DNA of 63,990 nucleotides, filler included, from an uncultured Methanosarcinales archaeon (lineage in GTDB: Archaea > Nanobdellota > Nanobdellia > Woesearchaeales > CAYPCY01), in assembly GCA_964409385.1 (NCBI GenBank). It is 7 parts of 5 records of this genome, joined end to end, with 100 filler letters (N's around TTAATTAATTAA, not from the genome) between each part and the next. Parts side by side here need not be neighbours in the genome. Positions count along the whole stretch, not along the records: positions 19,315 to 32,281 come from CAYPCY010000003.1; 6 more parts are not named here. One strand, given 5' to 3'. The notes beneath the pieces were generated by a model that saw only the letters and a list, made by a program, of their open reading frames with translations, searched no databases and was not told the origin of the DNA. Positions 9,407 through 33,403 of this stretch are shown here, piece by piece. The translations under genes and the position numbers were made by a program. The first letter of the stretch is position 1, and each line of letters starts with the position of its first letter.

Positions 9407-9410
9407 TTTT

Positions 9411-11797: not shown

Positions 11798-11897
11798 NNN
11801 NNNNNNNNNNNNNNNNNNNNNNNNNNNNNNNNNNNNNNNNNTTAATTAATTAANNNNNNNNNNNNNNNNNNNNNNNNNNNNNNNNNNNNNNNNNNNN
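11798..11897. other. Artificial contig linker
   Basis: N-run with TTAATTAATTAA. Confidence 0.98.
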
Positions 11898-12121: not shown

Positions 12122-12153
12122 ACTTTATAAAATTCTTATTGTTTCTTTATTTT

Positions 12154-15113: not shown

Positions 15114-15542
15114 TTAAGTAACTATTTGGTAGCATTCTGTTTTTTTATTGCATAATGAATTGCCAGTTACGCCATCACCTGATGGCCATGATGGATTATT
15201 TCCTGACCATCCATCTTGATCATATACAACAAAAGATGTTCCGTCTTTACATACTGCTCTTCTATCAAAACTTCCGCCATCTTTATCATCTGGTCCCCAG
15301 ATTGTGGAACAAGTATTGCCTGTATTATCATTTACCCAAATCCCGCCAGAAGTTGTTGTTAGGACTTCAATATGCGAACATTCAGAGTCTGAATTGGAGG
15401 AGATCATTCTATCTGATTCTCTTTTAAATGCTTCTCCGCTTAGATTTCCTGTGTTCATGAACATCATTATAAGGCCAACTACTGCGACTATGGCTACTAT
15501 TGCCATCATTTCGAATCTGTGATTATGTTGTTTCTTAGTCAT
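15114..15542 (-). CDS. Membrane-anchored Cys-containing surface protein (paralog B)
   Basis: Same TM cassette as 14667..15059, unrelated C-terminus. Confidence 0.65.
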   Translation of the reverse strand: MTKKQHNHRFEMMAIVAIVAVVGLIMMFMNTGNLSGEAFKRESDRMISSNSDSECSHIEVLTTTSGGIWVNDNTGNTCSTIWGPDDKDGGSFDRRAVCKDGTSFVVYDQDGWSGNNPSWPSGDGVTGNSLCNKKTECYQIVT

Positions 15543-17230: not shown

Positions 17231-17330
17231 NNNNNNNNNNNNNNNNNNNNNNNNNNNNNNNNNNNNNNNNNNNNTTAATTAATTAANNNNNNNNNNNNNN
17301 NNNNNNNNNNNNNNNNNNNNNNNNNNNNNN
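17231..17330. other. Artificial contig linker
   Basis: N-run with TTAATTAATTAA. Confidence 0.98.
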
Positions 17331-17776
17331 TTACCAGACGCGGCAATCTTACCACCAACACCACCATTACCACCCGCCTTACCATAAGAACCACCACCAA
17401 CACCACCAAAACCAGCATTATCTAAAAAATTAGCCTGATTAGAAAAACCCAAACCATTAATAAAATGAAGCTTCCTCCCAGTATTAATTTTCAATTCTAA
17501 AAAGTAAAGAAACCCATTACTAATATCCAAATTTCTTAACGAAACATCAATAGTTTGAGAGTCATCTATCTCACAATCAAATTTATCATCCTCACTAAAA
17601 ATACAACGACATCTTAAATCATTCCCTTCATCATCAGAAGATGGTTGGTTACTACACCAAAGACCACCACCATAATTACAATCGGAAACAGTAGTATAAA
17701 CATTACAAGCATCAACAGTCCCCAAAGAAAAACTAGCCAATAATAAAACAACAATTAAAAAAAACAATTTTCTCAT
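17331..17776 (-). CDS. Secreted Cys- and Gly-rich protein, 3' truncated
   Basis: Signal peptide MRKLFFLIVVLLLASFSLG, Cys cluster, GGxGG repeats running into the gap. Confidence 0.6.
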
Positions 17777-19214
17777 CTTATAATAAACCCTCCCTCAATA
17801 AACAAATCATCAAAATACGCGGGCAAATCCAAACCATCACTATCAGTAGTAAAGTATTTATTAATAACTTTTCCCGGAACTCCAGTAACCACAAAACCGA
17901 CCTGATTATACATAACACCACCCATAATACTAGGACCTGCAATATGAGACGGCTTTCTAATATCCAATTCAGGTTTTATAACCTCCCTATAATTTCCAGG
18001 CTGAGGAGAATTAGAATAAGTCCCAACATTATCAATAATAGGAGACATTAAATTCTGCCTACCAGCCTTAGACTTAGCAACAGGAACCAAATCAATAACA
18101 CCAGAAGTCCTATCACAACCCAAATTAGAATCATACATTTCATAATCAATACTAGAATTCATACAAACCCCCAAATCATTACAAGCCTCCAAACTAGAAA
18201 GTCTCAAGCCGCCACCATAATTAGGAACACAAGCCATCTCCCCCTCAGGGAAAGGATGATAAAAATTACTAGATTCAAACTCACACTCCGCCCTAAAAGA
18301 ACAAACAGCATCAGTAAAATCACGAGAATTAGACCTTGAAAGAGAAACATCAGACAATGAAACAACACCCTCAACCTCCAAAGACAAAGTAGAATAACCA
18401 CCATTACTACCAACATAAACAACATCAGAATCAAAAGTTAAACTATTAATAGAATTTCCAGAAAGACCATTATCAAAATCATACAATAACCAAGTCGTGT
18501 CAAAAATTCCCAAACCATCAGATTGAGTTCCTGCCAATAATTTATCAGAAGACAAACCAACAGTCTGCACTAACTCACCAGGAACTCCAGAATTTGAAAA
18601 ATTATAAACATTCCAAGAACCATCAAAATAAACAATTCCCTTATTAGTCCCAGCCACAATCTTACCAGACTTATAAGACGCACTAGTTATTTCAGTCTCA
18701 AACCCATACTCAGAATCATCATACTTACTCCAAGAACTACCATCATAAACAACAATACCAATACTAGTACCCAAAGTTAAAACATCACCACCCTCAATAG
18801 AATTAATCGTTACATCATTCAAGTAAGAAGGGAAAACATCCACCAAACCACAACCAAACCCTGAATTAGCCTCACAATCACCAACAGAAACATCACTACA
18901 ATCATAATAAAAACTACCCTCACAAACAGTTGACGAACCACAAAAACTAGGACAATCACCAATAGAAAAAGAACTACAATCCACAACAGAATCACTACCT
19001 TCACAAATACTTGAAGAAGAACAACCAAAATCAGAAAATTCTGCACAATTAGCAATCACATCAGAACAAGAAAATGTGAAGTCTGGACTATTCTCCACAC
19101 AAACATCAGAAGAAGAACAATACTCCCCAGGACAAGAATCAGTCTCTGCATAATACTCTTCACAACCAATCGTGAAGTCAGACCCAGAACAAGATCCTTC
19201 AACACTACACGAAT
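17773..19214 (-). CDS. Large Cys-rich surface protein with beta-propeller-like repeats, 5' truncated
   Basis: Frame open to the gap; Cys-rich repeats, then GT..GI..YDG..W..Y...NSG repeats. Confidence 0.65.
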
Positions 19215-19314
19215 NNNNNNNNNNNNNNNNNNNNNNNNNNNNNNNNNNNNNNNNNNNNTTAATTAATTAANNNNNNNNNNNNNNNNNNNNNNNNNNNNNN
19301 NNNNNNNNNNNNNN
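19215..19314. other. Artificial contig linker
   Basis: N-run with TTAATTAATTAA. Confidence 0.98.
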
Positions 19315-21824
19315 GATGCAGAATAATTCTTAGGAATAACAACCTTATCCAAAACAACCTGTTGCGAACCCCTATTCTCCAAAGCAATATTAACATTACA
19401 AACAGTTAAATTAGTAATCTCCTGACAATTCCTCCAACCACCAACATAACTAGGCCAAGGGGAAATCCAAGAATTAGCCTGACGCTCAGAAGACAATTGA
19501 TTAACTTGAGAATAATAAGAATTCGCTTCAGAATCAGAAAATCCAAACCGGTCCTTCAACCTACCAACAGCATCCACTTGAGAAACACCCTTGATATTAG
19601 TATACATCCACGCCCTATCAAAATCCCACAATCCAAAATGAGCCCACACTCCAGCCTTACCAACCATATCCGCACTAGTAATGAAATAATCCTCAGGAGG
19701 ATCCTCACACTTAACCAAATTCAAAACTCTATCAACTTCAACAACATCATTATTTTCTAAAAAAATTCTTGCTTCACGCTTATTTAAAGGAAGAATACCA
19801 GCCAAAATATTCTGACTCTTCTCAGTATCCTGAAACTGTTCATTCAAAGCATCAAAAGCCTGATTACTAGAACAAACAAGCATCCTTAACGTACCAACAG
19901 AAACCTTCTCATCAGGACTCTGCAAAGCCAAACCCAACCAATGACTCCTAGGAGTATTCTGAGAAGCACCATCAGCAGTCACACCACGATCTGCCCAGAA
20001 CTTAAACCAATGACCAAAATCCCACCAAGAATTAATAATAGCATCCTCAGAAGATTCAAGCTTAATCTTCTCAAGAGTCTCAACCCACGCATCATTAATA
20101 GAAGGAGTATAAACCTGACCAGTCTTAATACCTGCAGAAACAGGAGTCCATAAAGAAAAAATAACAAGTAATAAAACAAAACCAGTGGCAAACTTCTTAT
20201 GAATCCCCAACTTCAAACCCCTAAAAATCTCATTAAGTTTACCAAAGAAAATACCTAATGCAATAGCAAAAGGAGGAACTAAGAAAATAATAAACCTAAC
20301 CCCCTGAGTCAAAGTATAGAAAGAAACAGCATACCAAACAAGAACAAAAAAAGCATATTTAGTATCAATCTCCCTATCCTTAATATAAATTAAAGCACCA
20401 GCAAGAACAGGTAATGAAAACAGAATAGCATAAACTAAAGGAGAAGAAGCCAAAGCAACCTTAGACAACATAAACAAATAAAACAAGGACGCACCAGTAA
20501 TAAAAACATAATCTTTAGACTTTAACTTTCTAGAAAATAAAGATAATAAAACACCCAAAGCAGTAAGGAAAAACAATAATTTACCAATCTTGCCCCCACC
20601 CAAAGAACTAATAGCATTAGGAATATTAGTAGGATTCAATTCAGCAACAGTAGTATAAACATTAGGCCACAAATCAGCCTTTGCAGCATCCAATAAAGAA
20701 GTAGTCTTTAAAGGAGACAAAGGACCATTAACAAACGAATCAAAACCAGAAAATAAACTAACAAAAACACAAGATGCAATAACAAAAATAAGTAATGCAG
20801 AAACATTTTCCACAAACAACTTATTCTTAATAGCAGCAGCAAAAGTCCTCTTAACCACTAATAATCTAATTAGAGAATAACCAAGATAAGCAATAATAGC
20901 AATAATAACAAGATCAAAGAAATACCACCAAACACCCCACATAAAACTAGCCAAACCAGTAGCAACACCTGCTAAAACAGAAAAAGTAACTCTCCTACCC
21001 CACGACTTAGAATCCACAGCTTCAAAAAACAACCAAATAAGTAATAAAGGTGCAATAATATGATACAAGTCAGTATCAGAACCTAAACTCCTGGAAAGAA
21101 ACATTTGACTTCCAGCAATTAACATGCCCGCAGTAAAACCACCAATATTCCCAGCAACCCTTCTGGTAAGGAAAAAAGCAGGAATTACACTTAACATACC
21201 AATAATAATCTGAACCCAAAAAGAAGAATTCCATAAAACCTGCTCCTTATTAAAAAAAGATAAAAATTTGTGAGTAAACACAATCATGTAAGGATGTAAA
21301 GTATTTGTCCTCATAGGTCTTCCTTCAGGCGACAGCATAAGATCATTCCAGCAAGTTCCATCATTCACACTATCACAAATAGTTCCCTTCTCAAGCATAT
21401 TCCTAGAATGTCTTAAATAATAATAAGAATCCAAATCACCCAAGTAAGTCGTTGAAGGTTTACCATCAATATAACGAAAACGATTCTTGAAATAACTAGC
21501 AGTATTACTAACTTGAGCAGAATACTCTCCCCCAGATGAACTAATCATTTCAGAAACTTGTTCATTAATCAACTTCTGTCTCTGCTCCAATGGCAAATTA
21601 GGATATTGAGAATTAATCTGCTGAGCAACCTGATTTTCAACACTATTATAAACAGAACTTTCAGCCCAATCATCAACAGAAGGCAAATACATAGGTTGAA
21701 TCCTAATAAAAAAAGCCAGGAATAAAGGAATTAATAATGCAATAATAGTAATCCATTTCTTATTAGAAAAATTAAGTTTCTTCAAAAAAGAAAAATTAAG
21801 CTCGAATTCATCATCTTTAGACAT
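19315..21824 (-). CDS. aglB: Oligosaccharyltransferase AglB (STT3 family), 3' truncated
   Basis: DLDSYYYLR, multiple TM segments, TVAE, SWWDFGHW, DMVGK. Confidence 0.92.
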
Positions 21825-21887
21825 TAAAACCCCCTATTCTTAGCGAGAGGGGTAAACTATTTAAATAATTTATCCTAATCAAGAACT

Positions 21888-22211
21888 ATGAGTCCAATAC
21901 AAATAATAGTTATTTTGTTTTCCTTATTTGCAATATCAAGAGTTATTTTAAGGTTTAAAGATAGAAGTGTAACATTACAATCGCTATTTTTTTGGGTTAT
22001 TTTATGGATGGCAACAGTATTATTTGTTATGTTACCAAGGACTGCAAGTATACTTACAAATTTCTTTGGAGTAGGACGAGGTGCAGATCTACTAATTTAT
22101 TTAAGCATAATTTTATTGTTTTATTTAATCTTCAAAATTTACGTGAAAATAGATAATTTAAATAAAGAAATAACAAAAGCAGTAAGGAAAGAAAGTTTGG
22201 GGAAAAAATAA
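21888..22211 (+). CDS. DUF2304-like membrane protein of glycosylation loci
   Basis: Three TM, W...W, FGVGRGADL..Y, I..L...IT..VR. Confidence 0.75.
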   Translation: MSPIQIIVILFSLFAISRVILRFKDRSVTLQSLFFWVILWMATVLFVMLPRTASILTNFFGVGRGADLLIYLSIILLFYLIFKIYVKIDNLNKEITKAVRKESLGKK

Positions 22212-22215
22212 AATT

Positions 22216-23655
22216 TTATAATTTTAACATTTTTTTAATCAATAGTTTTTCCTCTTTAACAAAAAATCCTGAAATGAACAACATACTAAAATAAATAAAA
22301 ATTGCAAATAGTATTGTCAATAATTTATATATCATTGTTTCAGGAGTTATAAATAATATTGAGAATCCCATTATAAAAACAGAGAAGATTAATCTAAAAG
22401 GTTTTAAAAAATTCCAATTTAGTAATAAATCACTTTTTGTTTTCCAAATAAATATTATTGACATTAAAATGTAAGTTATTATTGTTGAAATTGCCGCTCC
22501 TAAAATAGAAAATTTAGGAATAAGTAAAAAATTTAATGTTAAATTAAAAGTCATCCCAAATAAATATATTTTACTAATTCCTATACTATCTTTTTTTAAG
22601 AATAAAATATTCTCTAAATTTAAATTAATCATGCGAAAGATAGGATAAGTAACTAAAATAGGAAGTAAAAATAATGCAGGTAAATATTTCGTTCCGGCAA
22701 TTAAAGTAATTATTTCTTGTCCTAATATTAACAAACCTATAATTGCAGGAATAACAATCATAAACGAATATTTAATGCTCGCGTTGATTAAAAAATTACT
22801 ATTTTCAGAATCTTTTTTATTATAAGCTTCAACAATATAGATATTTAAAGTTGTTATTATCTGTCTTCCCGAAATAGAAATTAATGCAACAAGCGTATAA
22901 ATAAAAGAATAAAAACCCAATTCCAAATTAGAATTAAATAATTTAATTAAATATCTATCACTCGCGGTTATAACCCATTGAGCAATTAATAAAGGAAGAA
23001 AAGGTAAACCAAATTTCAAACCTTTTAGAATGTACTGTTTATTAATATTAAATTTGAAAAGCATTCTTTTATTATCTATGAAAATTAATAAGATTGAAAT
23101 AGAAACAAATAATAGAACTGCTTTCAATAAAAATAATGTCGAAATATCAAAAGTCTTAAAAATAAATGCATAAACAATTATTAAAATATACCAAAAATCT
23201 CCAAGCAAATAAGTAAAAAAATTAGATTTTATAAGTTCTTTTCTTGAACGAATATATGAAATTAAAAGCATAGAATAATATGCAAAAATTACTGAAAAAA
23301 ACAAATAAACTAATAAAAATGAATCAATAAATGTGTTTAACTTGAAAAAAATTAAAAATAATAAAGACGCTAAAAATATTATAAAAACATAAAATGAATT
23401 CATGCTTGAAAAACTTCTTAATTTATACTTTTCTGATTTTCCTGTTAAATCCCTCTCAATAAACCTGTTAAGACCCATATTCATTATACCAACAACTAAA
23501 AAAATAGAAATTAATATTAAAGAATAAAAACCATAATCTTTAACTGATAACATTCTTGTTAATATAGGAAAAACAAAAAATCCAGAAAGTAACAAAAGTG
23601 CTTGAAGAAGATAACCAACACCAAATTCTCTAGTTATCTTCTTATATTTTTCCAT
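22216..23655 (-). CDS. Oligosaccharide flippase (Wzx/MOP family)
   Basis: PILTR.LS..DYG.Y, DRYLI...LGFYS, LN..LIP.F...GAAIST; polytopic. Confidence 0.85.
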   Translation of the reverse strand: MEKYKKITREFGVGYLLQALLLLSGFFVFPILTRMLSVKDYGFYSLILISIFLVVGIMNMGLNRFIERDLTGKSEKYKLRSFSSMNSFYVFIIFLASLLFLIFFKLNTFIDSFLLVYLFFSVIFAYYSMLLISYIRSRKELIKSNFFTYLLGDFWYILIIVYAFIFKTFDISTLFLLKAVLLFVSISILLIFIDNKRMLFKFNINKQYILKGLKFGLPFLPLLIAQWVITASDRYLIKLFNSNLELGFYSFIYTLVALISISGRQIITTLNIYIVEAYNKKDSENSNFLINASIKYSFMIVIPAIIGLLILGQEIITLIAGTKYLPALFLLPILVTYPIFRMINLNLENILFLKKDSIGISKIYLFGMTFNLTLNFLLIPKFSILGAAISTIITYILMSIIFIWKTKSDLLLNWNFLKPFRLIFSVFIMGFSILFITPETMIYKLLTILFAIFIYFSMLFISGFFVKEEKLLIKKMLKL

Positions 23656-23706
23656 TTTTCTGTACAATATGATTAAATTTTTAAATACTTTCCTTTTAAG
23701 TTTTCT

Positions 23707-24999
23707 ATGAGCGAATATAATGAATTAGTTAAGGATATTCTCAAAAAAATTGAAAAAAACAAAATTCATTATGTAATCAATAGAAATTATGAATTTTTAA
23801 TAAAAAATGAAACTTACAAAGGAGGAGATATTGATCTTTGTATTAAAAAAAAAGATGTTAAAAAAATTAACAAATTATTCCTGAAAAACAAATATAAAAA
23901 AATACCTATCAATCCTTTTTCTAATCATTCTGGATTTATTAAATATGTATCTTCTGAAAAGAAAGTTTTATTTTTTCATTTACACATAAATGGAATTACT
24001 GGAAGTCATTTGACATATTTAGACCATAAACAAATTCTTTCAAATAGGGAAAAAATAAAATTCTTTTATGTTCCTTCATTAGAAAATGAATTTTTAGGAA
24101 TATTATTACATACCACTATAGACAGAAATAAAATACGAAATGATTATAGAATAAGATTAGTTGAATTATATAAAAAAATTAATAAAAATTATGTTAAAAA
24201 ATGTTTAAAGAAAACAATAGGTAATAAAAATACTGATTTTGTTTTTGAAAATCTTGAAAATAAAAAATTTGAAAAGATTGAATTAAGACATAAAAAAATA
24301 TTAAAGTACTTCATAAACCACTATAAAAATAAATATTATTATTTGTTCAAAGTATATATATTAGGTGGTTTTTGGAAGTTAAATTGGTATTTGAAAAATA
24401 AACCATTAATATCTTTTATTGGAATGGATGGTTCTGGAAAAACAACAATAACAAATAGAGTTATTGAAATTTTAAAAAATAATAACTTAAAAGTTTCAAG
24501 AGTTTATACTGGAAGAGGAAAAAATAACATATTACCAATTCAATTATTTGGTTTAATATATAGAAAGGGAGGAGGAAAACCTAATCTTGCAACTGCTAAA
24601 ACTTCTGAAAAAAATAGTTTACTACAAACAATTGCTGCACCAATATTTTGTTTAGATTTATTATTAAGATATTTTTTTCAAATACTACCATTAAGGAAAA
24701 AAAAACAGTTTACTATTACTGATAGATACTCTACAGATATTCTTTTAATTAATAAAGTTCCAAAAGTTCTAAAGAACATCCTATTCTTTTTTTTTCCAAA
24801 ACCAACATTAATATTTTATTTATATAATGATCCAAAAATATTAGAAAAAAGAAAAAACCACCCAATTGAAGATTTATACAGACAAGAAAAAATATTCTCA
24901 AAAATAACTAAAAAAATTAAAAGCATAAATATAAAATCAGACAATTTAGAAGTCATGGAAAATGAAATAATTGAAAAAATTATTGAAACTATTAAATAA
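23707..24999 (+). CDS. Nucleotidyltransferase-fold domain fused to a thymidylate-kinase-like P-loop domain
   Basis: N-terminal RNY...GGDIDL (DxD); C-terminal G.DGSGKTT and DRY motifs. Confidence 0.65.
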   Translation: MSEYNELVKDILKKIEKNKIHYVINRNYEFLIKNETYKGGDIDLCIKKKDVKKINKLFLKNKYKKIPINPFSNHSGFIKYVSSEKKVLFFHLHINGITGSHLTYLDHKQILSNREKIKFFYVPSLENEFLGILLHTTIDRNKIRNDYRIRLVELYKKINKNYVKKCLKKTIGNKNTDFVFENLENKKFEKIELRHKKILKYFINHYKNKYYYLFKVYILGGFWKLNWYLKNKPLISFIGMDGSGKTTITNRVIEILKNNNLKVSRVYTGRGKNNILPIQLFGLIYRKGGGKPNLATAKTSEKNSLLQTIAAPIFCLDLLLRYFFQILPLRKKKQFTITDRYSTDILLINKVPKVLKNILFFFFPKPTLIFYLYNDPKILEKRKNHPIEDLYRQEKIFSKITKKIKSINIKSDNLEVMENEIIEKIIETIK

Positions 25000-26148
25000 T
25001 TAGTATATCTTTTCTAAAATTTCTAAAACTACTCGTTTCGTTATTTTTACAGGATTGTTTATAACTCTTTCAGGATTAAATCCTTTTTCTACAATTAATG
25101 AAAAATCTTCATTTTTAATTCCAAGATTAGATAATTTTCTTTCTAAGCCTATTTCATCTATTAAATTTAAAAATTTCTTTTTTGCTTCTTTTCCAGATTT
25201 TACTTCTAGAATGTCTAAAAGTGAAGAAAATGTTTCTTTTGCATAATCAAGATCAAATCCTTTTTTTATCTGAATATTACTTCTGTTAATGTTTTCATTG
25301 ATTTCAAAAAAATAAGGTAATGTTAACATGACTGCATGACCATGAGAAATTCCAAAATTATATGTGAGGGGATAAGATATAGAATGAGCTGCTGTTGTTT
25401 TTGCTATTGAAATTGCTCTTCCTGAATAATGAGCTCCCAAAAGCATGGCATCTCTAGATTCTAATGTCGGATTAGTAATCACTTTATAAAAATTCTTCAT
25501 TATAAGTTCAATTGCTTTTCTAGACTGTTTTTTAGATTCGTCAGTAGAATTTACAGACCAATAAGATTCTATCGCTTGAGAAAGCGCGTCACAACCGCAA
25601 CTAGCAGTAGTATGTTTATCTAAAGTAATTGTTAATTCAGGATCTAAAATAATCTCTTCAGGTATCATTAGCTTGCTTGTGAAACTATATTTTTCACCAT
25701 CAATATAAATAACTGCGAAAGGAGTTATTTCTGAACCTGTTCCTGCAGTAGTTGGAACAAAAACACTTGGAATTTTTTTATCAAATTTCGTGCTTTTTAA
25801 AATATATTCTTTTATTTTTTTATCTGATAAATCTCTCTTAAAAGAAAGTAAATTAGCAGATTTTGCTGAATCCAAAACAGAACCACCACCAATCGCAATT
25901 ATTAATTCTGGATTAAACAAATTAATATAGTTTGCTAGTTTCAAAACATTTTCACTTTTAGGACTTCCTCTTTTTATCTTATATACTTTAAAATAATAAT
26001 TACTTAATTTATCTTCTAAAACTTGCTTTGCCTTATTTTTTTTGTAACTTCGTCCTCCAGTTATTAAAAGAATTTTTTTAGGAGAATAAGTTTTAACTAT
26101 GTTTTCAATCCTATTTATTTTTCCAGGACCATGTAAAATATTAACCAC
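25000..26148 (-). CDS. Iron-containing alcohol dehydrogenase, probable phosphonoacetaldehyde reductase (PhpC/FomC-like)
   Basis: GGGSVLDSAK, PTTAGTGSE, DALSQAIESYWS, TTAAHSISY, HGHAV; divergent from pepM. Confidence 0.85.
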   Translation of the reverse strand: MVNILHGPGKINRIENIVKTYSPKKILLITGGRSYKKNKAKQVLEDKLSNYYFKVYKIKRGSPKSENVLKLANYINLFNPELIIAIGGGSVLDSAKSANLLSFKRDLSDKKIKEYILKSTKFDKKIPSVFVPTTAGTGSEITPFAVIYIDGEKYSFTSKLMIPEEIILDPELTITLDKHTTASCGCDALSQAIESYWSVNSTDESKKQSRKAIELIMKNFYKVITNPTLESRDAMLLGAHYSGRAISIAKTTAAHSISYPLTYNFGISHGHAVMLTLPYFFEINENINRSNIQIKKGFDLDYAKETFSSLLDILEVKSGKEAKKKFLNLIDEIGLERKLSNLGIKNEDFSLIVEKGFNPERVINNPVKITKRVVLEILEKIY

Positions 26149-26234
26149 AATAAAAAAATAATCTTTTGATTTAAATAATTAACTTTAACAATTAACAAAA
26201 TTTTTAAATTTATTAACATATCTCTAATAAGAAT

Positions 26235-27533
26235 ATGATAGATACAAAAATAGAAAAAATTGTTTATATTGGAATGAGTGCAGATCTTATTCATCATGGC
26301 CACTTAAATATAATACACCATGCAAAAAAATATGGACATGTTATTGTGGGTTTACTTACTGATAAAGCAATAGCTTCATACAAGAGACTTCCTGCCCTGA
26401 CTTTTTCACAAAGAAAACATATTCTTGAACATATAAGAGGAGTTGATAAAGTAATTCCTCAAGAAACTCTTGATTATGTTCCAAATTTAAGAAAAATTAA
26501 ACCAGATTATGTCCTACATGGTGATGATTGGAAAAAAGGAATTCAAAAGAAAACAAGAGAAAGAGTCATAAATGTTCTAAAAGAATGGGATGGAAAAATT
26601 ATAGAAATAGAATATACTCCTGCAATATCTTCTACGCGACTTCACAAATATTTGGATGATATAGGAACAACACCTGAAATTAGAATGAAAAGGCTTAGAA
26701 GATTTCTTGAGACAAAAGACCTTGTTGCCTTCATGGAAGCCCATAATGGACTTTCAGGATTAATTGTAGAAAAAACAAAAATTAAACATAAGAACAAAAT
26801 AAGAGAATTTGATGGTATATGGATAAGTAGCTTAACAGATTCCACTGCAAAAGGAAAACCAGATATTGAATTAGAAGCTAGAATGAATACACTTCACCAG
26901 ATTCTAGAAACAACAACTAAACCAATAATTGTTGATGGCGACACTGGAGGAATTCCTGAACACTTCAAATTTACTGTTAGAACTTTAGAGAGATTGGGGG
27001 TTTCTGCAATCATCATTGAAGATAAAATAGGACTTAAAAAAAATTCACTTTTTGGAACTGAAGTTAAACAGGAACAAGACTCTTTAATGAACTTTGCGAA
27101 AAAAATTTCAGAAGGGAAAAAAGCACAAGTTACAGAAGATTTTATGATTATTGCAAGAATTGAAAGTTTAATTCTTGGAAAAGGAATGGAGGACGCATTA
27201 AAACGGGCAAAAGCATATATTGAAGCAGGAGCAGATGGAATAATGATACACAGTAAAAGCAAAAGCCCTAATGAAGTTCTCGCTTTTTGTAAAGAATATA
27301 ATAAGTTCAAAGAAAAAGTCCCTCTTGTTGTGGTTCCTAGCACATATAACTCAATAAAAGAGAATGAATTAAAAAAATCAGGAGTTAATATAGTTATTTA
27401 TGCAAATCATCTGTTAAGAAGTGCTTATCCTACGATGGTATTAACTGCAAAATCAATTCTTGAAAACCAAAGATCTCTTGAAGCAAACAAATATTGCATG
27501 CCTATTAAAGATATAATTAATTTAATACCTTAA
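26235..27533 (+). CDS. pepM: Phosphoenolpyruvate mutase with N-terminal cytidylyltransferase domain
   Basis: N-terminal DLIHHGH, HGDDW, ISST; PepM signature EDK-X5-NS ([10 protein letters not shown]), DGDTGG, ARIESLI. Confidence 0.93.
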
Positions 27534-27535
27534 AA

Positions 27536-28654
27536 ATGATAAAAGTAGAAGATTTTTTTGAGTGCTTTTTAGAAGAAAAGGTAGACTTTTTTACGGGTGT
27601 ACCTGACTCTTTATTAAAAAGCTTTTGTGCGTATTTATTAGAAAAATATCCCGAAAAGCACATTATTGCTGCAAATGAAGGAAATGCCATTTCTATAGTT
27701 GCAGGACATTACTTAGCTACAAACAAAATAGGCCTTGTTTACTTACAAAATTCAGGATTAGGAAATTGTGTAAATCCATTAACTTCATTAACTGATAAGG
27801 AAGTTTATTCTATTCCGCTTATTATGCTAATAGGCTGGAGAGGTGAACCTGGTGAAAAAGATGAACCACAACACATAAAACAAGGAAGAATAATGCTTGA
27901 TATGCTAAAAGTTCTTGAAATTCCTTATGAAATTCTTCCAAAAGATTTTGAAGATGCTAAACAAATAATTTCCAATTCTATCAAATATTCTAGAGAAAAA
28001 AAAACACCTTTTGCAATCATTGTTAAAAAAAATACTTTTGAAAAATTTCAAATAAATGAAAAAGACCAAAAAGGTATATCCAGAGAAGATTCTATTAAGT
28101 TAATAGTTGATTCATTGAGTGAGAAAGATATTATTGTTTCAACAACTGGTAAAACATCAAGAGAATTATTTGAGTATAGAGAAGAATTAAATCAAACACA
28201 TGAAAAAGATTTTTTGACTGTAGGTTCTATGGGACATTCATCATCTATAGCTTTAGGGATTTCATTAAATAAAAAAAATAAAAAAATAATTTGTTTAGAT
28301 GGAGATGGTGCAGTAATAATGCATATGGGTTCTTTAACTACAATAGGCGCAATAAAACCTGAAAATTTTATTCATATTGTTTTAAATAATTATTCTTATG
28401 ATTCTGTCGGAGGACAGCCGACTTCTGCTAATAGTTTGGATTTTGCAAAAATAGCTAGTGATTCGGGATATTTGAATGTAAAAAAGGTTGATTCATCTGA
28501 AGACATAAAAAATATATTAAACAAATTTAAGAAAAAAAAAGGTCCTTCTTTTATTGAAATTATAGTTAAAAAAGGGGCAAGAAAAAATCTTGGGAGACCA
28601 ACAAGTACACCCAAAAAAAATAAAGAAATATTTGAAAAATTCTTACAAAAATGA
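27536..28654 (+). CDS. ppd: Phosphonopyruvate decarboxylase
   Basis: GVPDSLL, ANEG, QNSGLGN, GWRGEPG..DEPQH, GSMGH, DGDGA..M, SVGGQPT, LGRP. Confidence 0.93.
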   Translation: MIKVEDFFECFLEEKVDFFTGVPDSLLKSFCAYLLEKYPEKHIIAANEGNAISIVAGHYLATNKIGLVYLQNSGLGNCVNPLTSLTDKEVYSIPLIMLIGWRGEPGEKDEPQHIKQGRIMLDMLKVLEIPYEILPKDFEDAKQIISNSIKYSREKKTPFAIIVKKNTFEKFQINEKDQKGISREDSIKLIVDSLSEKDIIVSTTGKTSRELFEYREELNQTHEKDFLTVGSMGHSSSIALGISLNKKNKKIICLDGDGAVIMHMGSLTTIGAIKPENFIHIVLNNYSYDSVGGQPTSANSLDFAKIASDSGYLNVKKVDSSEDIKNILNKFKKKKGPSFIEIIVKKGARKNLGRPTSTPKKNKEIFEKFLQK

Positions 28655-30201
28655 AAAAACTACCTGATATTTATTGGATTGCGATAGAAGGAAACAGATC
28701 CTTTGAAAGCTATGATAAATTCTCTAAAAATAAAATTTTTGAAAAACTTTCTAATACTGCAATTCTTTTTTCTAATACAATTGCCACTGCAACTTCAACA
28801 TTAATGTCAACTAGTTCTTTCTTCACAGGAAGATTTTCGTATGAATTATATTATGCACACGAAGCAATGAAAAAATTTGAGTATGATAGTTATCCAAAAG
28901 AATTAGAAAGAAAAGGATATGAATTAAATTCAATATTTTTCTGTAGAGAAGGAAAAGAATTCTATGAAAAATATTTGAATGTTCATTTGACTAGAGATGA
29001 CTATAAATCATTAAATAACAAAATATTAACTAAATTTAAGGAAGTTATGATTTCTAAAATATCAAAAAACAAACCCAAATTTTTTTACATTCATTTAGCA
29101 CCTACAAAAGAATCTGAAGAACCAGAGTATATACTAAATTTTTTAAAAGAAAAAAATCTTTTTAAATCTTCTTTTATAGTTATTAGTTCAGATCACGGAT
29201 ATTGTGATTATGGAAAAATTCATAGTCTTGGATGGTTATTAAAACCCAAAAATCATTCACTATACGTTTCTGAAGATTGTTATAGATCTAATTTATTAAT
29301 GAAAATACCTAAAAAATATAGTGAAATTTCTTCCAAACAAATAAATTCACAAGTTTCATTAATTGATGTGTTTGAAACAATTTTTGATTATCTAAATATT
29401 GAATATAAACCAAAAAACAAAAAAGCCATTTCTTTAAAAAAAGCAATAGAAACAAATAATTATAGATTTAAAAATAAATTAAATGAACGACTTTTAAGAA
29501 TTGATAATAGATATATTGGACAAAATTTTCAAAAAACAATAATCAGAAATAATAATTATGAATTAATTATTGAAAATAATACTTCTAAACTATTCAAAAG
29601 AAATGAACACAAAAATTGGAAAAAAAGATTAAAAAAAATAAATAAAAATAAAAATAAAGTTGTTTTAAGAAATTTAAATAATTTTTTAAAATTAACAGAA
29701 AAAGAAACCAAAAAAACAAATATTGATGTCCTAAAAAGAAATTATTATGAAAGTGAATTGAAAAAAGAATTGAGAAAAATAAAAAATAAAAAAATTGGTG
29801 TTTTTAACTATTCTAACAAGTATGTTTTGAAATTTATTGTAAAAAAACTAAAAAAAAATAATCAAGTTATTATAGTTGATACTAAATCATTAAAAAAAAT
29901 AACAAATAAATTAGATTATATCTTTATTTTAATAAACAATCCTTATTCTTTCGGATTTCATAAATTCATAAAATTTTGTAAAAAGAAAAAATTAAAAACA
30001 GTAATATCAAATATTAAATTTGAAAAACAAAAATTTCAACCTCATAGCATAATAAAACATGCTAGATCAGATTGGCGAGCATATGTGGATCATAAAATAG
30101 GTTCTAAATTTGTAATTTTTCTAATGTTGTGTTGGCTTCAATTATTAGATATGTATTATTTATGGAAAGCAAAAAAGAGAAACCTACTTATTTCTTCTTA
30201 A
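28651..30201 (+). CDS. Alkaline phosphatase/sulfatase superfamily protein
   Basis: PDIYWIAIE, T.T..S..S.FTG, ISSDHG, VSLIDVF.TI; overlaps the ppd stop. Confidence 0.6.
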   Translation: MKKLPDIYWIAIEGNRSFESYDKFSKNKIFEKLSNTAILFSNTIATATSTLMSTSSFFTGRFSYELYYAHEAMKKFEYDSYPKELERKGYELNSIFFCREGKEFYEKYLNVHLTRDDYKSLNNKILTKFKEVMISKISKNKPKFFYIHLAPTKESEEPEYILNFLKEKNLFKSSFIVISSDHGYCDYGKIHSLGWLLKPKNHSLYVSEDCYRSNLLMKIPKKYSEISSKQINSQVSLIDVFETIFDYLNIEYKPKNKKAISLKKAIETNNYRFKNKLNERLLRIDNRYIGQNFQKTIIRNNNYELIIENNTSKLFKRNEHKNWKKRLKKINKNKNKVVLRNLNNFLKLTEKETKKTNIDVLKRNYYESELKKELRKIKNKKIGVFNYSNKYVLKFIVKKLKKNNQVIIVDTKSLKKITNKLDYIFILINNPYSFGFHKFIKFCKKKKLKTVISNIKFEKQKFQPHSIIKHARSDWRAYVDHKIGSKFVIFLMLCWLQLLDMYYLWKAKKRNLLISS

Positions 30202-30826
30202 GAACAATTATTAAGTTTTGTCCAAAAAATAAATTTTTAATTGGTAAATTGATATGAATAACAGGTACAACACTTCTATTAAATGTAACTTTTTCAATTT
30301 TAAACAAGGTTCTGATTAATAACTTTACCTGCCAAACAAAAATAGGAGTTATATGTGGTTCAAAATCATATTCATATTTAACATGCTCTTGACCATGGAA
30401 TGACGGAAACTTCCCAGTTAATAGCATATATACTCTACTAAACCAATTCTGATTATTTGGAGTTGTAAATATAAATACACCATCATCATTCAATAGATTA
30501 TAAGCATCAACAAATAACTTTTTAGGATTATATAAATGTTCAATTACTTCAGTACAAGTAACTAAATCATATTTAGTTTTTACTTTTACTTCTTTATTCA
30601 AATCTAATTTTAAACATTTCATCCCATGTTTTCTTGACATCTCAGGATTCAAATCAGTAATAGTTACATCATAACCTGCATTTGAAAGTCTTAAAGGAAG
30701 TCCACCATAACCACTACCTAAATCCAATACTTTTTTTGGTTTATACCCATCAACTAATTTATGAACAGTTGAATGTAAAAATTTTGAAGCTCTTCTTAAT
30801 TCTTTTTTTGCCATTTTATTTACCAT
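30188..30826 (-). CDS. Class I SAM-dependent methyltransferase
   Basis: VLDLGSGYG, YDLVTCTEVIEHL, GVFIFTTPN. Confidence 0.85.
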   Translation of the reverse strand: MVNKMAKKELRRASKFLHSTVHKLVDGYKPKKVLDLGSGYGGLPLRLSNAGYDVTITDLNPEMSRKHGMKCLKLDLNKEVKVKTKYDLVTCTEVIEHLYNPKKLFVDAYNLLNDDGVFIFTTPNNQNWFSRVYMLLTGKFPSFHGQEHVKYEYDFEPHITPIFVWQVKLLIRTLFKIEKVTFNRSVVPVIHINLPIKNLFFGQNLIIVLKKK

Positions 30827-30834
30827 AAGTTATT

Positions 30835-32281
30835 TTATTTATTAATACTAATAATATATTGATCCAAATGTTGTTTAACTATATCCTTCATCTCAAAATC
30901 TTCTGCTCTTATTTTTGAATTTTTAATTAATTTTGAAGATAATTTAGAATCAGTCAAAACTTTTGAAATTTCCTGATAAAGAGATTTAGCATTTTTACCT
31001 TTTGCCATCATCACATGTTCCCCAGGAGTTACAATTTCTAATAATTCTGGTTGTCTTGTAGTAACAACAGGAACACCATGAACCATACCTTCAATCAAAC
31101 ATAAAGGATTACCCTCAGTTCCNNNNNNNNNNNNNNNNNNNNNNNNNNNNNNNNNNGTAAAACTAAAACATCCGATAAAGATAAGTAATCAGGAACATTA
31201 ATCTTACCAACCTCTAAATGTATGTTTTCTCTCAATGGATGATTTTCAACCATTTTAACTAAATGAGGTAACCACACAACTGGATGAACTAAAACTAGAT
31301 GTACATTATCTGATTTTTTAAAATACTTAAATGATTCAACTAAATATTCAACACCTTTATTTTTACCACCTTTACCATAATAAAATACAACTTTAGAATT
31401 TTCAGGAATATTTAGCTCATTCCTTGCAGGTTCGGAGTTACCATGTTTTCTAAACCTATCTAAAACAACTCCCGAATGCACTAAATGTATCTTCCTAAGT
31501 AATGTTCCACCCGTAAGTAATTTATCTTTTAAAAGAGTCAAAGGCACAAATATCCCATCAGTTAGATTAAATAATTTACAAGGGATTTTCCCATACGCAT
31601 TAAATATACTCTCAGACCTAATTGTGTGAAATATTTTTGCACGAGGCGAATATAATTTCCCAATTAATGAACTAGTAAAAAGAATTGGAGCTGAACTAGA
31701 ACCATGGAATATGTCAAATTTAAGTTTTAATTTTCTTTGAACATATCCAACACCAATACCTGCTGCAATAAACCTATTAAATATTGTTGCTGGGTTAAAG
31801 TACATTTTTCTAATATTAAACCATTTTAAACCATAGGGTCTATAAACAGGAATCCCTCTATAAACTTCATACTTCTTAGTTGCTGCAGGACCATACCATG
31901 AAGAATAGCCTTGACTACTAATCATAACAGGATTATGACCTAACTTTTTTAGACCAATTGCAAGTTCTACAATTGAAGTAAACCCTGCATCCACAGTTTC
32001 AGTATTATAATCCTTTGTTAAAAATGCAATATTTAACTTTTTTTCATTAAGAGGCAAAGATTTTCTAATAAGGTCAAATGTTCGAGGAACTTCTTCAAAT
32101 TGCTTTATATATTTAGCCTTAGTATTTAATTTAAAAGAAACTTTATTTGCATGTCCACGAATAAAACTTGCATCATTTACTCCAAAAAATTTTTGCTTAA
32201 AATATCCCTTAGCCTTAACTACAAAATTATTAGAATTATTATAAATTCCATATTCAAAAATATCATTCTTAAACTCACTTC
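30835..32281 (-). CDS. GT4 (GT-B) glycosyltransferase with an extra N-terminal region; internal N-gap, 5' truncated
   Basis: E-X7-E motif EGNPLCLIE and G.PVVTT after gap 31123-31156; frame stays open upstream of 32057 to the contig end. Confidence 0.8.
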
Positions 32282-32381
32282 NNNNNNNNNNNNNNNNNNN
32301 NNNNNNNNNNNNNNNNNNNNNNNNNTTAATTAATTAANNNNNNNNNNNNNNNNNNNNNNNNNNNNNNNNNNNNNNNNNNNN
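32282..32381. other. Artificial contig linker
   Basis: N-run with TTAATTAATTAA. Confidence 0.98.
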
Positions 32382-33319: not shown

Positions 33320-33403
33320 GCCTCTGTGGCTCAGTGGTAGAGCGTTACCTTGGTATATAATACGAACAGGTAAAGGTCCCGAGTTCAACTCTCGGCAGAG
33401 GCT
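33320..33403 (+). tRNA. tRNA-Thr(GGU) with 12-nt intron at 37/38 (33356-33367)
   Basis: GCCTCTG-TG-GCTC-AGTGGTA-GAGC-G-TTACC-TTGGTA[TATAATACGAAC]A-GGTAA-AGGTC-CCGAG-TTCAACT-CTCGG-CAGAGGC-T. Confidence 0.9.

Follow-up and report, generated by a model that had tools for sequence, protein, structure and literature searches.

Comparison with described phosphonate systems

In the fosfomycin route of Streptomyces wedmorensis (Fom1/Fom2/FomC), a cytidylyltransferase-PEP mutase (PepM) fusion, a phosphonopyruvate decarboxylase (Ppd) and an Fe-dependent alcohol dehydrogenase (Fe-ADH) lead to CMP-2-hydroxyethylphosphonate (CMP-HEP), which is made by Fom1, and onward to fosfomycin (PMC6697681; this and the other papers cited are drawn on in partial text). 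The Pnt pathways, represented by Treponema denticola Tde1415 (PntC-Ppm), also combine Ppm-fused nucleotidyl activation of a phosphonate with cell-surface tailoring; those PntCs that have been characterised belong to PF12804 (LicC-like), use 2-aminoethylphosphonate as substrate and are paired with LicD-like transferases, while among 1,485 Ppm proteins 23.6% are PF01467 fusions (Rice et al. 2019, PMC6697681). In Nitrosopumilus maritimus and Stackebrandtia nassauensis, PepM, Ppd and Fe-ADH produce HEP, and polysaccharide carries the resulting phosphonates as esters (PMC8942020), with N. maritimus proceeding to methylphosphonate via MpnS; arylsulfatase-like and nucleotidyltransferase genes are present in such exopolysaccharide-phosphonate neighbourhoods (PMC9381506). 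In Prochlorococcus SB/SAR11, the pepM cluster adjoins a Wzx flippase and an oligosaccharyltransferase, phosphonate was recovered from the membrane-protein fraction, and decoration of surface glycoproteins has been proposed (Acker et al. 2022, PMC8931226).

The locus described here comes from the 0.8-Mb genome (G000) of a marine archaeon of DPANN (Woesearchaeota) type, and the phosphonate chemistry of its cassette is of this known kind. It shares the PF01467-PF13714 fusion and the enzyme logic of the fosfomycin route, but lies among glycan genes in an archaeal host, and Fom3 (B12 radical SAM), Fom4/HppE (cupin) and FomD were not found in the locus or genome; CMP-HEP would therefore be the end donor and not a transient intermediate. 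Unlike the Pnt systems, it combines PF01467 with an Fe-ADH and has no aminotransferase or LicD, with a sulfatase-like protein as candidate transferase, and unlike N. maritimus it has no cupin-type oxygenase that we could find. Whereas the Prochlorococcus SB/SAR11 system uses the O-oligosaccharyltransferase PglL and the initiator PglC, the enzyme here would be the archaeal N-oligosaccharyltransferase AglB. An earlier note on this DNA had proposed such decoration; the idea has a precedent, since a bacterial parallel of pepM, Wzx and PglL has been published (PMC8931226, in the part drawn on). With moderate confidence, we read the whole as a HEP-type phosphonate surface-tailoring module in a single aglB/Wzx island: the only oligosaccharyltransferase and the only flippase of a DPANN archaeon adjoin genes that very probably make a CMP-activated C-P compound for the decoration of surface sugars.

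Gene content of the locus

The window, i.e., the whole stretch of DNA analysed (63,990 nucleotides), was rejected as a single DNA stretch, as it consists of seven genome pieces with linkers (N44-TTAATTAATTAA-N44) between them. The piece at 19315-32281 corresponds to G000:C3:65885-78851, the terminal 12,967 b of a contig 78,851 b long, and window ORFs left of 19215 were rejected as neighbours, being located at the opposite end of the contig. All nine genes named in the earlier note were recovered in place by profile matches, along with a tenth that had been overlooked, encoding a 430-aa fusion protein (Table 1). A truncation of aglB in the genome was also rejected: the cut stems from the stitching of the window, which covers the N-terminal 836 codons, and the contig ORF is complete, encoding 937 aa (L002 6730-9543, minus strand). 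The glycosyltransferase gene, the final one ahead of the contig end, appears as two ORFs because a 34-N scaffold gap (31123-31156) splits the reading, and the two-ORF interpretation was discarded.

Table 1. Genes of the phosphonate locus, with window positions and profile evidence
Gene product	Position	Strand	Evidence
AglB (STT3-type oligosaccharyltransferase)	19315..21824	-	PF02516 130.9 bits, PF21436 29.1 bits
DUF2304 small membrane protein, divergent from aglB	21888..22211	+	PF10066 81.3 bits
Wzx-type (Polysacc_synt) flippase	22216..23667	-	PF01943 44.6 bits, 12 hydrophobic segments
430-aa nucleotidyltransferase-fold/dTMP-kinase-fold fusion	23707..24999	+	weak PF14907, PF02223 matches
Fe-ADH, divergent from PepM operon	25000..26148	-	PF00465 122.9 bits, PF25137 115.8 bits
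Fom1-type cytidylyltransferase-PEP mutase	26235..27533	+	PF01467 61.1, PF13714 189.1, TIGR02320 393.6 bits
Ppd, phosphonopyruvate decarboxylase	27536..28654	+	TIGR03297 481.5 bits
Sulfatase-like alkaline-phosphatase-superfamily protein	28651..30201	+	PF00884 42.9 bits
Class I SAM methyltransferase	30188..30826	-	PF13489 64.3 bits
GT4-family glycosyltransferase	30835..32057	-	PF00534, PF13439, PF13692 on both halves

Profile searches of the piece at 19315-32281 revealed no aminotransferase, radical-SAM, cupin or epoxidase gene. The lack of downstream tailoring noted before extends beyond the locus, as Fom3-, HppE-, MpnS- and AEPT-like genes were not found in the genome either. Profile searches of G000 yielded no Cupin_2 protein as a candidate HppE, HepD or MpnS and no match to PF04464, PF01066 or PF04991, and tblastn searches of G000 with the B12-rSAM, AEPT, LicD, TagF, CDP-alcohol transferase and phosphodiesterase genes of related loci gave no match.

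The cassette very probably makes CMP-HEP

The enzymology proposed earlier, up to HEP-CMP, was well supported. PepM and Ppd, whose genes are separated so that Ppd starts 3 nt past PepM, both scored above the NCBIfam equivalog cut-offs (319.55 bits for TIGR02320 and 312.5 bits for TIGR03297). In the fusion, the cytidylyltransferase occupies about residues 8-141 and the PEP mutase about residues 150-432. The mutase domain matched PDB 1m1b with an E value of 2.5e-42, and the alignment to Mytilus PEP mutase kept all eight residues that we take to be catalytic in that enzyme (D58, D85, D87, E114, K120, N122, R159, and H190). The EDKX5NS motif, a discriminator of PepM (PMC6697681, in the part drawn on), was found at residue 262. 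The N-terminal domain matched the Fom1 cytidylyltransferase structure (PDB 5x3d, E 3e-55) and was ~61% identical to this solved HEP-activating domain (82/134 aligned positions). Since the same fusion type occurs with aminotransferases, which replace Fe-ADH and Ppd, in one related locus (L017), architecture does not set the substrate of the cytidylyltransferase domain, which we infer to be HEP.

The best NCBIfam model for the Fe-ADH was TIGR03405, at 179.9 bits, under the 423.7-bit cut-off for the phosphonate Fe-ADH equivalog, and models for AdhE, ErcA and sulfoacetaldehyde reductase scored nearly equally. Its metal ligands are D187, Q191, H255, and H269, and the Gln-for-His ligand is common to 33 of 35 cassette-linked ADHs. 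When 38 related loci, bacterial for the most part, were compared, an Fe-ADH homologue adjoined the fusion in 31 and Ppd was present in 32; this conserved partnership points to a phosphonoacetaldehyde reductase. The PepM domain would thus convert PEP to phosphonopyruvate, Ppd would decarboxylate this to phosphonoacetaldehyde, the divergent Fe-ADH would reduce the aldehyde to HEP, and the Fom1-type domain would combine HEP with CTP to give CMP-HEP, very probably the product of the cassette.

A sulfatase-like protein is the likely HEP-transferase

The start of the sulfatase-like gene and the stop of Ppd share 4 nt, and the two genes are translationally coupled. The protein has no N-terminal signal or transmembrane segment and a single C-terminal hydrophobic segment, and it shares the PF00884 fold signature with S1 sulfatases, LtaS, and EptA/MCR-1. 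Family columns were read over 65 aligned sequences. Among the conserved metal and acid-base residues, position 13 was D in 58 sequences and E in the other 7, while D181, H182, and H202 were present in all 65. The formylglycine position, Thr50 in our protein, was T in 48 sequences and S in the other 17, and position 54 was never Arg; the C/S-x-P/A-x-R motif of the formylglycine sulfatases was absent from every member. The catalytic core is intact, and the formylglycine motif is lost. A Thr or Ser nucleophile is typical of transferases and diesterases of the alkaline-phosphatase superfamily, and LtaS and EptA have Thr as nucleophile, as at position 50 here. Unlike LtaS and EptA, the protein lacks an N-terminal multi-pass membrane domain and a secretion signal, and it would draw on a soluble nucleotide as donor in place of a phospholipid.

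The gene was found in 5 of 401 genomes of the phylum, in four of these within ~5 kb of a PepM or PepM-like gene, and on a metagenome contig (L075) it follows Fe-ADH within the operon; none of the 38 cassette loci, most of them bacterial, yielded a relative, and in its stead TagF-like (L011, L022), CDP-alcohol (L030) or LtaS-type (L004) genes are present there. The methyltransferase gene is convergent with it and overlaps its end, an arrangement retained in G009, L075, and L076 with 64-66% identity of the methyltransferase, for which the closest solved relative was only UbiG (E 4.8e-6). The pair accompanies the cassette, and the methyltransferase is a conserved partner. We regard the sulfatase-like protein as a likely HEP-transferase and the best candidate for moving HEP from CMP-HEP onto a sugar hydroxyl, which would proceed through a phosphonyl-Thr50 intermediate. 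Since the protein lacks a signal peptide and is anchored only at its C-terminus, its acceptor would be a lipid-linked glycan at the cytoplasmic face, and the partner methyltransferase would add a methyl group.

The protein may instead be a hydrolase of CMP-HEP or a phosphonate ester, with a FomD-like function or as a remodelling esterase, because its sequence is closest to true sulfatases: a profile comparison with the PDB gave S1 sulfatases as nearest solved relatives (E 1.8e-33), followed by phosphonate monoester hydrolase (1.3e-18) and LtaS (about 1e-12). A match to SGSH_C in 51 of the 65 members and the lack of a membrane-embedded N-terminal domain of LtaS/EptA type are consistent with this. 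However, Thr or Ser replaces the formylglycine residue throughout the family, and no other known CMP/CDP-dependent phosphotransferase family was found in G000. We consider a hydrolase doubtful but still a substantial possibility, in which case HEP would be freed, or attached by the GT4 enzyme or the nucleotidyltransferase-fold domain of the 430-aa protein.

The 430-aa protein comprises a nucleotidyltransferase fold (residues 1-186) followed by a P-loop domain of the dTMP-kinase fold (230-430); its AF2 model (pLDDT 90.5) matched dTMP kinase (Z 19.6), MenT1 (Z 12.7), and ANT(2'') (Z 11.8). It occurs in 33 of 401 phylum genomes, only 7 of which have PepM, and belongs to the island without being tied to the phosphonate module, which argues against its serving as the HEP-transferase in place of the sulfatase-like protein.

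The cassette lies in an aglB/Wzx glycosylation island

AglB, with the motifs WWDFG at residue 600, DLD at 130, and TVAE at 392 and 10 hydrophobic segments, was the sole STT3 match in G000, and the flippase was the single PF01943 match. On the 3' side of aglB, in the same direction, lie a GT-C-like gene of 588 aa, a GT2 gene, and two NAD epimerase/dehydratase genes, and the genes flanking the cassette are all glycan genes. The same phosphonate genes recur in G009, where the methyltransferase, sulfatase-like, PepM, Ppd, and Fe-ADH genes abut a Wzx-AglB-GT2 operon, in which the flippase counterpart and the end of aglB share 4 nt. The aglB-island setting claimed in the earlier note is thus real and recurrent. 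The sole Wzx-type flippase would turn the decorated glycan outward, with AglB as its most likely user.

The earlier claim that HEP-CMP decorates the AglB N-glycan fared less evenly: the island setting held, and the N-glycan acceptor did not gain from proximity. For 23 genomes of the phylum that carry PepM, the distance to STT3 was compared between PepM and ordinary GT1 genes. PepM lay <20 kb from STT3 in 8 of 23 genomes, versus 33 of 124 GT1 genes (Fisher p 0.45), and the same-contig cases alone gave 8/13 versus 33/53 (Fisher p 1.0). The aglB link of PepM is real yet non-specific, and therefore indicates a glycan island rather than N-glycans. PepM sits closer to Wzx-type flippase genes, with a Polysacc_synt gene at <=6 kb in 8 of 23 genomes (8/13 where both share a contig). 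For these reasons, HEP decoration of N-glycans is plausible, and any effect on host or virus recognition is pure speculation.

CMP-HEP could also be made for another surface glycoconjugate, either an O-linked or lipid-anchored glycan handled by the 588-aa GT-C-like enzyme or a polysaccharide that is released or held only loosely at the surface. Besides the proximity result in the same 23 genomes, this reading draws on the position of that second GT-C-like membrane enzyme directly downstream of aglB (PMT_2 17.9 bits; atlas score 0.98 to clusters with PMT_2 in 12-57% of members), on the O-linked precedent in Prochlorococcus (PMC8931226), and on the known HEP and MPn conjugates, which are the exopolysaccharides of Stackebrandtia and Nitrosopumilus (PMC8942020; both papers in part). 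On the other hand, profile searches of G000 found no Wzy_C (polymerase/ligase) and the genome is without a TagF-like enzyme, it has one flippase and one STT3, and the cassette-adjacent flippase of G009 is translationally coupled to aglB. We judge a glycoconjugate other than the AglB N-glycan unlikely.

Spread of the cassette and its neighbours

PepM was detected in 26 of 401 genomes of the host's archaeal phylum. In six of the seven annotated related loci (L013, L017, L020, L011, L022, and L004), the cassette lies amid GT4, GT2, flippase, and methyltransferase genes. The seventh, L030 from Pelagibacteraceae, has GT2 and a CDP-alcohol phosphatidyltransferase beside the cassette. This neighbour, like the Streptomyces Fom1, Fom2, and FomC enzymes that lead to fosfomycin (PMC6697681, in the part drawn on), would fit a phosphonolipid head group or a small-molecule phosphonate (fosfomycin-like or methylphosphonate) instead of a glycan decoration; such a product is very unlikely here, given that neither a CDP-alcohol phosphatidyltransferase nor a Cupin_2 protein or relative of the B12 radical-SAM enzyme of kin loci was found in G000 and that the neighbours of the cassette are all glycan genes.

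It is exceedingly improbable that aglB and the phosphonate genes lie side by side only through an assembly chimera: GC content does fall from 0.33-0.36 across aglB to 0.22-0.24 between 22 and 26 kb, but the junction genes DUF2304 and flippase typically accompany aglB, as in G120 and G170 (DUF2304 again beside AglB and GT2), PepM and STT3 share one contig in 13 of 23 genomes, and the same gene set occupies the same neighbourhood on a 571,606-b contig of G009, which belongs to a different family.

Gene layout of the locus

Of the window's 63,990 b, 572 are N, and six linkers lie within it; matching of its pieces to the source genome (G000; 797,906 b in 15 contigs, completeness 100, contamination 0.01) gave seven stretches from five contigs, two each from C2 and C3 and one each from C1, C6, and C15. 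ORFs reaching into a linker are artefacts. The region with the phosphonate genes, window 19315-32281, corresponds to G000:C3:65885-78851, i.e., the terminal 12,967 b of this 78,851-b contig. The stretch before it in the window (17331-19214) is the opening 1,884 b of C3 and no true neighbour, and the real upstream DNA of aglB, encoding an STT3-type oligosaccharyltransferase, was taken from the genome (L002 and L003). All ORFs of at least 80 aa were scanned with Pfam and NCBIfam, and every gene named in the earlier note was present at the locus, along with one encoding a 430-aa protein that had been overlooked.

Coordinates of the genes and linkers (window positions)
Feature	Position	Strand	Remark
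aglB	19315-21824	minus	
DUF2304	21888-22211	plus	
Polysacc_synt/Wzx flippase	22216-23667	minus	12 hydrophobic segments
430-aa gene	23707-24999		absent from the earlier note's gene list
Fe-ADH	25000-26148	minus	
CTP_transf_like-PEP_mutase fusion	26235-27533	plus	
Ppd	27536-28654	plus	
PF00884 (sulfatase-like) protein	28651-30201	plus	
Class I methyltransferase	30188-30826	minus	
GT4	30835-32057	minus	split solely by a 34-N scaffold gap
Linkers	1091-1190, 11798-11897, 17231-17330, 19215-19314, 32282-32381, 62249-62348		N44-TTAATTAATTAA-N44

PepM and Ppd are separated by 2 nt, and Ppd overlaps the sulfatase-like gene by 4 nt; given this tight packing, the three genes form one operon. The GT4 and methyltransferase genes constitute a second operon on the opposite strand. 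The G+C content was 0.215-0.24 over the flippase, 430-aa, Fe-ADH, and sulfatase-like genes (window 22001-26000 and 28001-30000), 0.33-0.36 over aglB, and ~0.30 elsewhere. When the 90-nt regions preceding 57 PepM starts were compared by eye, no shared motif was seen beyond A+T-rich TATA-like runs.

The core genes predict synthesis of CMP-activated 2-hydroxyethylphosphonate

The fusion protein comprises a cytidylyltransferase domain (PF01467, residues 15-136) and a PepM domain (PF13714, residues 155-409). The earlier note's assignments of PepM and Ppd, for which it had proposed HMM comparison, held. PepM scored 393.6 bits against TIGR02320 (396.1 bits on the genome; equivalog cut-off 319.55), and Ppd scored 481.5 bits against TIGR03297 (cut-off 312.5) and carries both TPP domains, PF02775 and PF02776. 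In its alignment to 1m1b, the PEP mutase of Mytilus (E 2.5e-42), the PepM part was identical at D58, D85, D87, E114, K120, N122, R159, and H190, which we take to be the catalytic and Mg-site residues of that enzyme. The motif EDKXXXXXNS was found at residues 262-271; according to PMC6697681, it sets PepM apart from other isocitrate-lyase-family enzymes. The PepM part is thus classed as a PEP mutase, with predicted activity.

Residues 8-141 matched the Fom1 cytidylyltransferase structure (5x3d) with E 3e-55, and 82 of the 134 aligned positions (61%, hand count) were identical. The Fom1 domain is described as converting 2-hydroxyethylphosphonate (HEP) and CTP to CMP-HEP (PMC6697681, citing Cho 2017). 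From this identity and the linked Fe-ADH, we infer that HEP would be the substrate here as well. The same fusion type occurs with aminotransferases in one related locus (L017).

The Fe-ADH had been proposed to be of the PhpC/FomC type, and its linkage to PepM and Ppd agreed with this, although it missed the cut-off of the corresponding model. Its best NCBIfam match was the phosphonate Fe-ADH model TIGR03405 (179.9 bits; equivalog cut-off 423.7), just ahead of AdhE (166.7 bits), ErcA, and sulfoacetaldehyde reductase models, and five cassette-linked ADHs from other loci likewise fell under the TIGR03405 cut-off (96-265 bits). Among 38 related loci, several of which end early at contig ends, a Fe-ADH homologue was present beside the fusion in 31 and Ppd in 32; the linkage to PepM/Ppd also occurs in three other genomes of the phylum (G009, G170, and G197) and on the metagenome contig L075. 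The assignment as a phosphonate-pathway enzyme therefore draws on conserved linkage, the sequence being less certain. When the window's Fe-ADH was aligned with 34 homologues in loci L004-L075, the Asp and two of the His metal ligands were retained in 35/35, and where the Thermotoga enzyme 1vhd has His as its second metal ligand, 33/35 had Gln. This Gln-for-His exchange may be a signature of a phosphonoacetaldehyde reductase clade.

The pathway most likely ends at CMP-HEP

The absence of aminotransferase, radical SAM, and epoxidase genes claimed in the earlier note was confirmed for the locus by the Pfam and NCBIfam scans, which also detected no cupin gene there. The core equals the early steps of fosfomycin synthesis, whereas the late enzymes Fom3 (B12 radical SAM) and Fom4/HppE (cupin) are missing from the locus, as is FomD in the general Pfam/NCBIfam scans. 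Across the whole of G000 there was no match to Cupin_2 (PF07883), which bears on MpnS only if MpnS matches that family, nor to PF04464, PF01066, or PF04991. With queries from relatives' loci, tblastn of G000 (E<=1e-3) found no B12 radical SAM, AEP transaminase, LicD, TagF-like, CDP-alcohol transferase, or phosphodiesterase match. Since none of these tailoring or transferase genes was found, the pathway most likely ends at CMP-HEP, and G000 has no head-group transferase of the phospholipid type to draw on. A 441-aa ORF (17773-19098) was considered as a hidden MpnS/HepD and rejected; it had no Pfam/NCBIfam match and a best PDB E of 0.92, and its position on C3 is at the end away from the locus.

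A sulfatase-like protein with a Thr nucleophile is a candidate HEP-transferase

A k-mer search gave only 6 relatives of the sulfatase-like protein; exhaustive HMMER gave 1,021 with E<=1e-3, of which 164 had E<=1e-10. PF00884 was present in 65/65 aligned members, and the profile of these members, when searched against the PDB, ranked S1 sulfatases first (6hr5, E 1.8e-33), with phosphonate monoester hydrolase at 1.3e-18 and LtaS at ~1e-12. The family shares PF00884 and the metal-site Asp/His residues with the S1 sulfatases (D/E13, D181, H182, and H202 kept in 65/65, the last three invariant), but lacks their C/S-x-P/A-x-R nucleophile motif. The formylglycine Cys/Ser position (50) is Thr in 48 and Ser in 17 of the 65 members, position 52 (the +2 Pro of sulfatases) is occupied by Met in 56, and no member has the +4 Arg, at position 54; the protein of G000 itself reads T50-L-M-S-T54. 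Because this motif is lost, the protein cannot be a formylglycine sulfatase, and, as judged from the alignment, its alkaline-phosphatase-type site is intact, with Thr as the nucleophile.

Thr is also the nucleophile of the LtaS/EptA type of phosphotransferase, and all 65 members have Thr or Ser at the position aligned to the sulfatase Cys/Ser. LtaS/EptA enzymes combine an N-terminal multi-pass membrane domain with an extracytoplasmic catalytic domain; in a hydropathy scan, the sulfatase-like protein showed neither a signal peptide nor any N-terminal membrane segment, and its sole hydrophobic segment was at residue 483, which suggests a cytoplasmic, tail-anchored enzyme. In the ESM Atlas, its best similarity was 0.88 to clusters named 'sulfatase-like hydrolase/transferase', below the 0.9 lead threshold.

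The gene was found in only 5 of 401 genomes of the phylum, in four of them within ~5 kb of PepM (G000, G009, and G197) or of PepM-like paralogues (G380), and a metagenome scan with a 6-row alignment of the family gave 3 loci. On L075, it follows Fe-ADH within the operon. A methyltransferase gene converges on its 3' end in G000, G009, L075, and L076, the last three encoding proteins 64-66% identical to that of G000. None of the 38 mostly bacterial cassette loci contained a relative of the sulfatase-like protein; near the cassette in those loci were genes of the TagF-like (L011 and L022), CDP-alcohol (L030), and LtaS types (L004).

A DhpI-like phosphonate O-methyltransferase identity for the methyltransferase was rejected, as no such PDB match was obtained and the best was UbiG (E 4.8e-6). 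For the sulfatase-like protein, two roles are weighed. Our reading is that it would be the HEP-transferase of this cassette variant, in line with the LtaS/EptA-type nucleophile and the linkage to PepM, but it may instead be a hydrolase, as are the S1 sulfatases and phosphonate monoester hydrolase that head the PDB matches; we give the two about equal chances. Together with the methyltransferase, the protein is a concrete, testable candidate for CMP-phosphonate transfer, a step left open by Rice et al. 2019 (PMC6697681).

In G380, three neighbouring fusions of a cytidylyltransferase with an isocitrate-lyase-family domain (L071, G380:C11:24000-43999; ORFs 8335-9570, 9567-10895, and 11967-13139) adjoin the sulfatase-like relative and B12 radical SAM and Capsule_synth genes. 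Their scores fall far short of the threshold for PepM (two are listed, with 167 and 140 bits), and G380 has a true PepM as well, on a separate contig.

The cassette lies in a surface-glycan island with aglB

The earlier note had proposed that HEP decorates the glycan transferred by AglB. The full aglB of the genome encodes 937 aa with the motifs WWDFG (residue 600), DLD, and TVAE, and scored 130.5 bits for PF02516 and 28.9 bits for PF21436; against the archaeosortase-linked subfamily TIGR04154, it missed the cut-off (43.3 bits vs 450). The flippase is of the Wzx type (PF01943, 44.6 bits; cut-off 28.2). G000 has one STT3 and one Polysacc_synt flippase, both flanking the cassette, and no Wzy_C. 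In G009, which belongs to a different family of the same order, the methyltransferase, sulfatase-like, PepM, Ppd, and Fe-ADH genes lie together on a 571,606-b contig and are followed on the opposite strand by Wzx, AglB, and GT2 (the AglB and Wzx genes share 4 nt) and then by a homologue of the 430-aa protein. Phosphonate genes are also a few kb from aglB in G170 and G120. The module of G120 (L072, G120:C3:66000-85999) is of a different type, with a PepM-PF12804 fusion, Ppd, a LicD-family protein, and a B12 radical SAM; PMT_2 and UbiA genes are located on the far side of aglB from it.

The predicted structure of the 430-aa protein (pLDDT 90.5) has two domains, one with a nucleotidyltransferase fold (MenT1, Z 12.7; ANT(2''), Z 11.8) and one with a dTMP-kinase fold (Z 19.6), and sources annotate the family as 'thymidylate kinase'. 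The family occurs in 33 of the 401 genomes, frequently with a pair of paralogues close to glycan genes. A role as specific HEP transferase was rejected, with PepM present in only 7 of these 33 genomes; the protein belongs to the glycan island and not to the phosphonate module.

The association of pepM with aglB was then surveyed across 23 of the 26 PepM-positive genomes of the phylum, leaving out G017, G141, and G218 (114-137 bits). STT3 was present in all 23, and PepM and STT3 shared a contig in 13. The synteny suggested by the earlier note does recur, with PepM within 20 kb of STT3 (centre to centre) in 8/23 genomes, a range into which a random gene of a 1-Mb genome would fall by chance in ~4% of cases. 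However, PepM was no closer to STT3 than were GT1 genes, of which 33/124 (33/53 on the same contig) were within 20 kb in the same genomes; the two were indistinguishable (Fisher p 0.45 for all and 1.0 for same contig), the genomes being related and the samples not independent. PepM lay within 6 kb of a flippase gene in 8/23 genomes (8/13 on the same contig), and by this uncontrolled figure seems tied more tightly to the flippase gene than to STT3.

This evidence supports HEP on a Wzx-flipped, lipid-linked surface glycan made in the aglB island, and to that extent the proposed decoration stood; the evidence for the N-glycan itself is gene neighbourhood, from which we infer the final step, glycan to Asn. 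The aglB operon also encodes a GT-C-like enzyme, which would be another outlet for the glycan. aglB heads a same-strand run with genes for a 588-aa membrane protein, a GT2, and two NAD epimerase/dehydratases, and the 588-aa protein, with eight segments, a PMT_2 score of 17.9 bits, and an atlas similarity of 0.98 to clusters partly with PMT_2, looks GT-C-like. The interpretation of the earlier note was thus borne out in part, while its observation of the gene cluster stood.

For the N-glycan route, HEP would be passed from CMP-HEP directly to the lipid-linked oligosaccharide at the cytoplasmic membrane face by a previously uncharacterised, tail-anchored offshoot of the sulfatase family with a Thr nucleophile and a dedicated methyltransferase; Wzx would flip the HEP-bearing glycan, and AglB would then transfer it. 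That DPANN archaea place a C-P compound on N-linked glycans by way of the sulfatase-like/methyltransferase pair, Wzx, and AglB is possible but, in our estimate, rather doubtful. If true, these would be the first phosphonate-bearing N-glycoproteins in Archaea and an archaeal source for the marine pool of polysaccharide-bound HEP.

Spread of the cassette

Relatives of the fusion at 48-70% identity were found in 38 species-representative genomes, mostly of Bacteria (including Clostridium, Prevotella, Pelagibacteraceae, Ignavibacteria, and Paceibacterota), with two archaeal MAGs. PF01467-Ppm fusions are reported for 23.6% of 1,485 RefSeq Ppm proteins (PMC6697681), and HEP-type neighbourhoods for 8.5% of 434 (PMC8942020). 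In the phylum, PepM occurred in 26 of 401 sampled genomes (E<=1e-30; 20 exceeding the cut-off) and 22 of 281 genera; among the 30 closest relatives of G000, only G009 and G409 had it.

In a maximum-likelihood tree of 60 PepM rows (L040 and L046 left out as truncated sequences and L068 as a duplicate of L067), archaeal and bacterial fusions were intermixed, which suggests horizontal spread of the fusion. The phylogeny proposed in the earlier note grouped the window's protein with those of three further genomes from this phylum (support 93/90), but the backbone was unresolved and no donor emerged; under the well-supported branches, the DPANN rows require at least 3 changes, with no direction of transfer given.

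The description of the host as DPANN-like is reasonable, as G000 is a complete genome of 0.8 Mb in a phylum whose sampled genomes span 0.6-2.1 Mb and homologues are labelled 'Candidatus Woesearchaeota archaeon' by their sources; in the PepM tree, one record of that name had the very same row as a genome of the same class. No archaeal SSU rRNA was found in G000, presumably because it is unassembled. Runs containing the stretch came from three studies and were labelled as marine or seawater metagenomes; among the 9 runs listed, there was no RNA run.

Relation to known systems

The core pathway is already catalogued, and the locus follows the same logic as the bacterial phosphonyl-tailoring pathways described in PMC6697681. 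In concept, the nearest precedent comes from Prochlorococcus SB, for which PMC8931226 reports phosphonate in the membrane-protein fraction and a pepM cluster with PglC, Wzx, and the O-oligosaccharyltransferase PglL. Arylsulfatase-like genes close to pepM have been remarked on earlier (PMC9381506). A full-text literature search found no link of phosphonate synthesis or PepM to Woesearchaeota, Nanoarchaeota, Pacearchaeota, other DPANN, or AglB; matches for AglB and phosphonate concerned synthetic substrate analogues, and a Borg preprint mentions a PEP-mutase fusion, which belongs to an unrelated element. Phosphonate producers are described as still poorly known (PMC8931226), and, given the marine runs and PepM in 26/401 genomes, ultrasmall archaea would be an additional source that has so far gone unreported. 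Two features merit a bench test, namely the pairing of the Thr-nucleophile sulfatase-like protein with the methyltransferase and the N-glycan that may bear HEP.

Other features of the window

An 84-nt tRNA (window 33320-33403, plus strand; Rfam 61 bits) was assigned by ARAGORN an anticodon of four bases, 'tggt', at position 32, which probably reflects an intron or an unusual anticodon loop. Two neighbouring minus-strand genes of contig C2 (window 14667-15059 and 15114-15542) encode small Cys-rich proteins with a near-identical N-terminal hydrophobic segment (…FEMMAIVAIVAVVGLI…NTGNLSGEAF), and these have the look of paralogues at the cell surface, either secreted or pilin-like.
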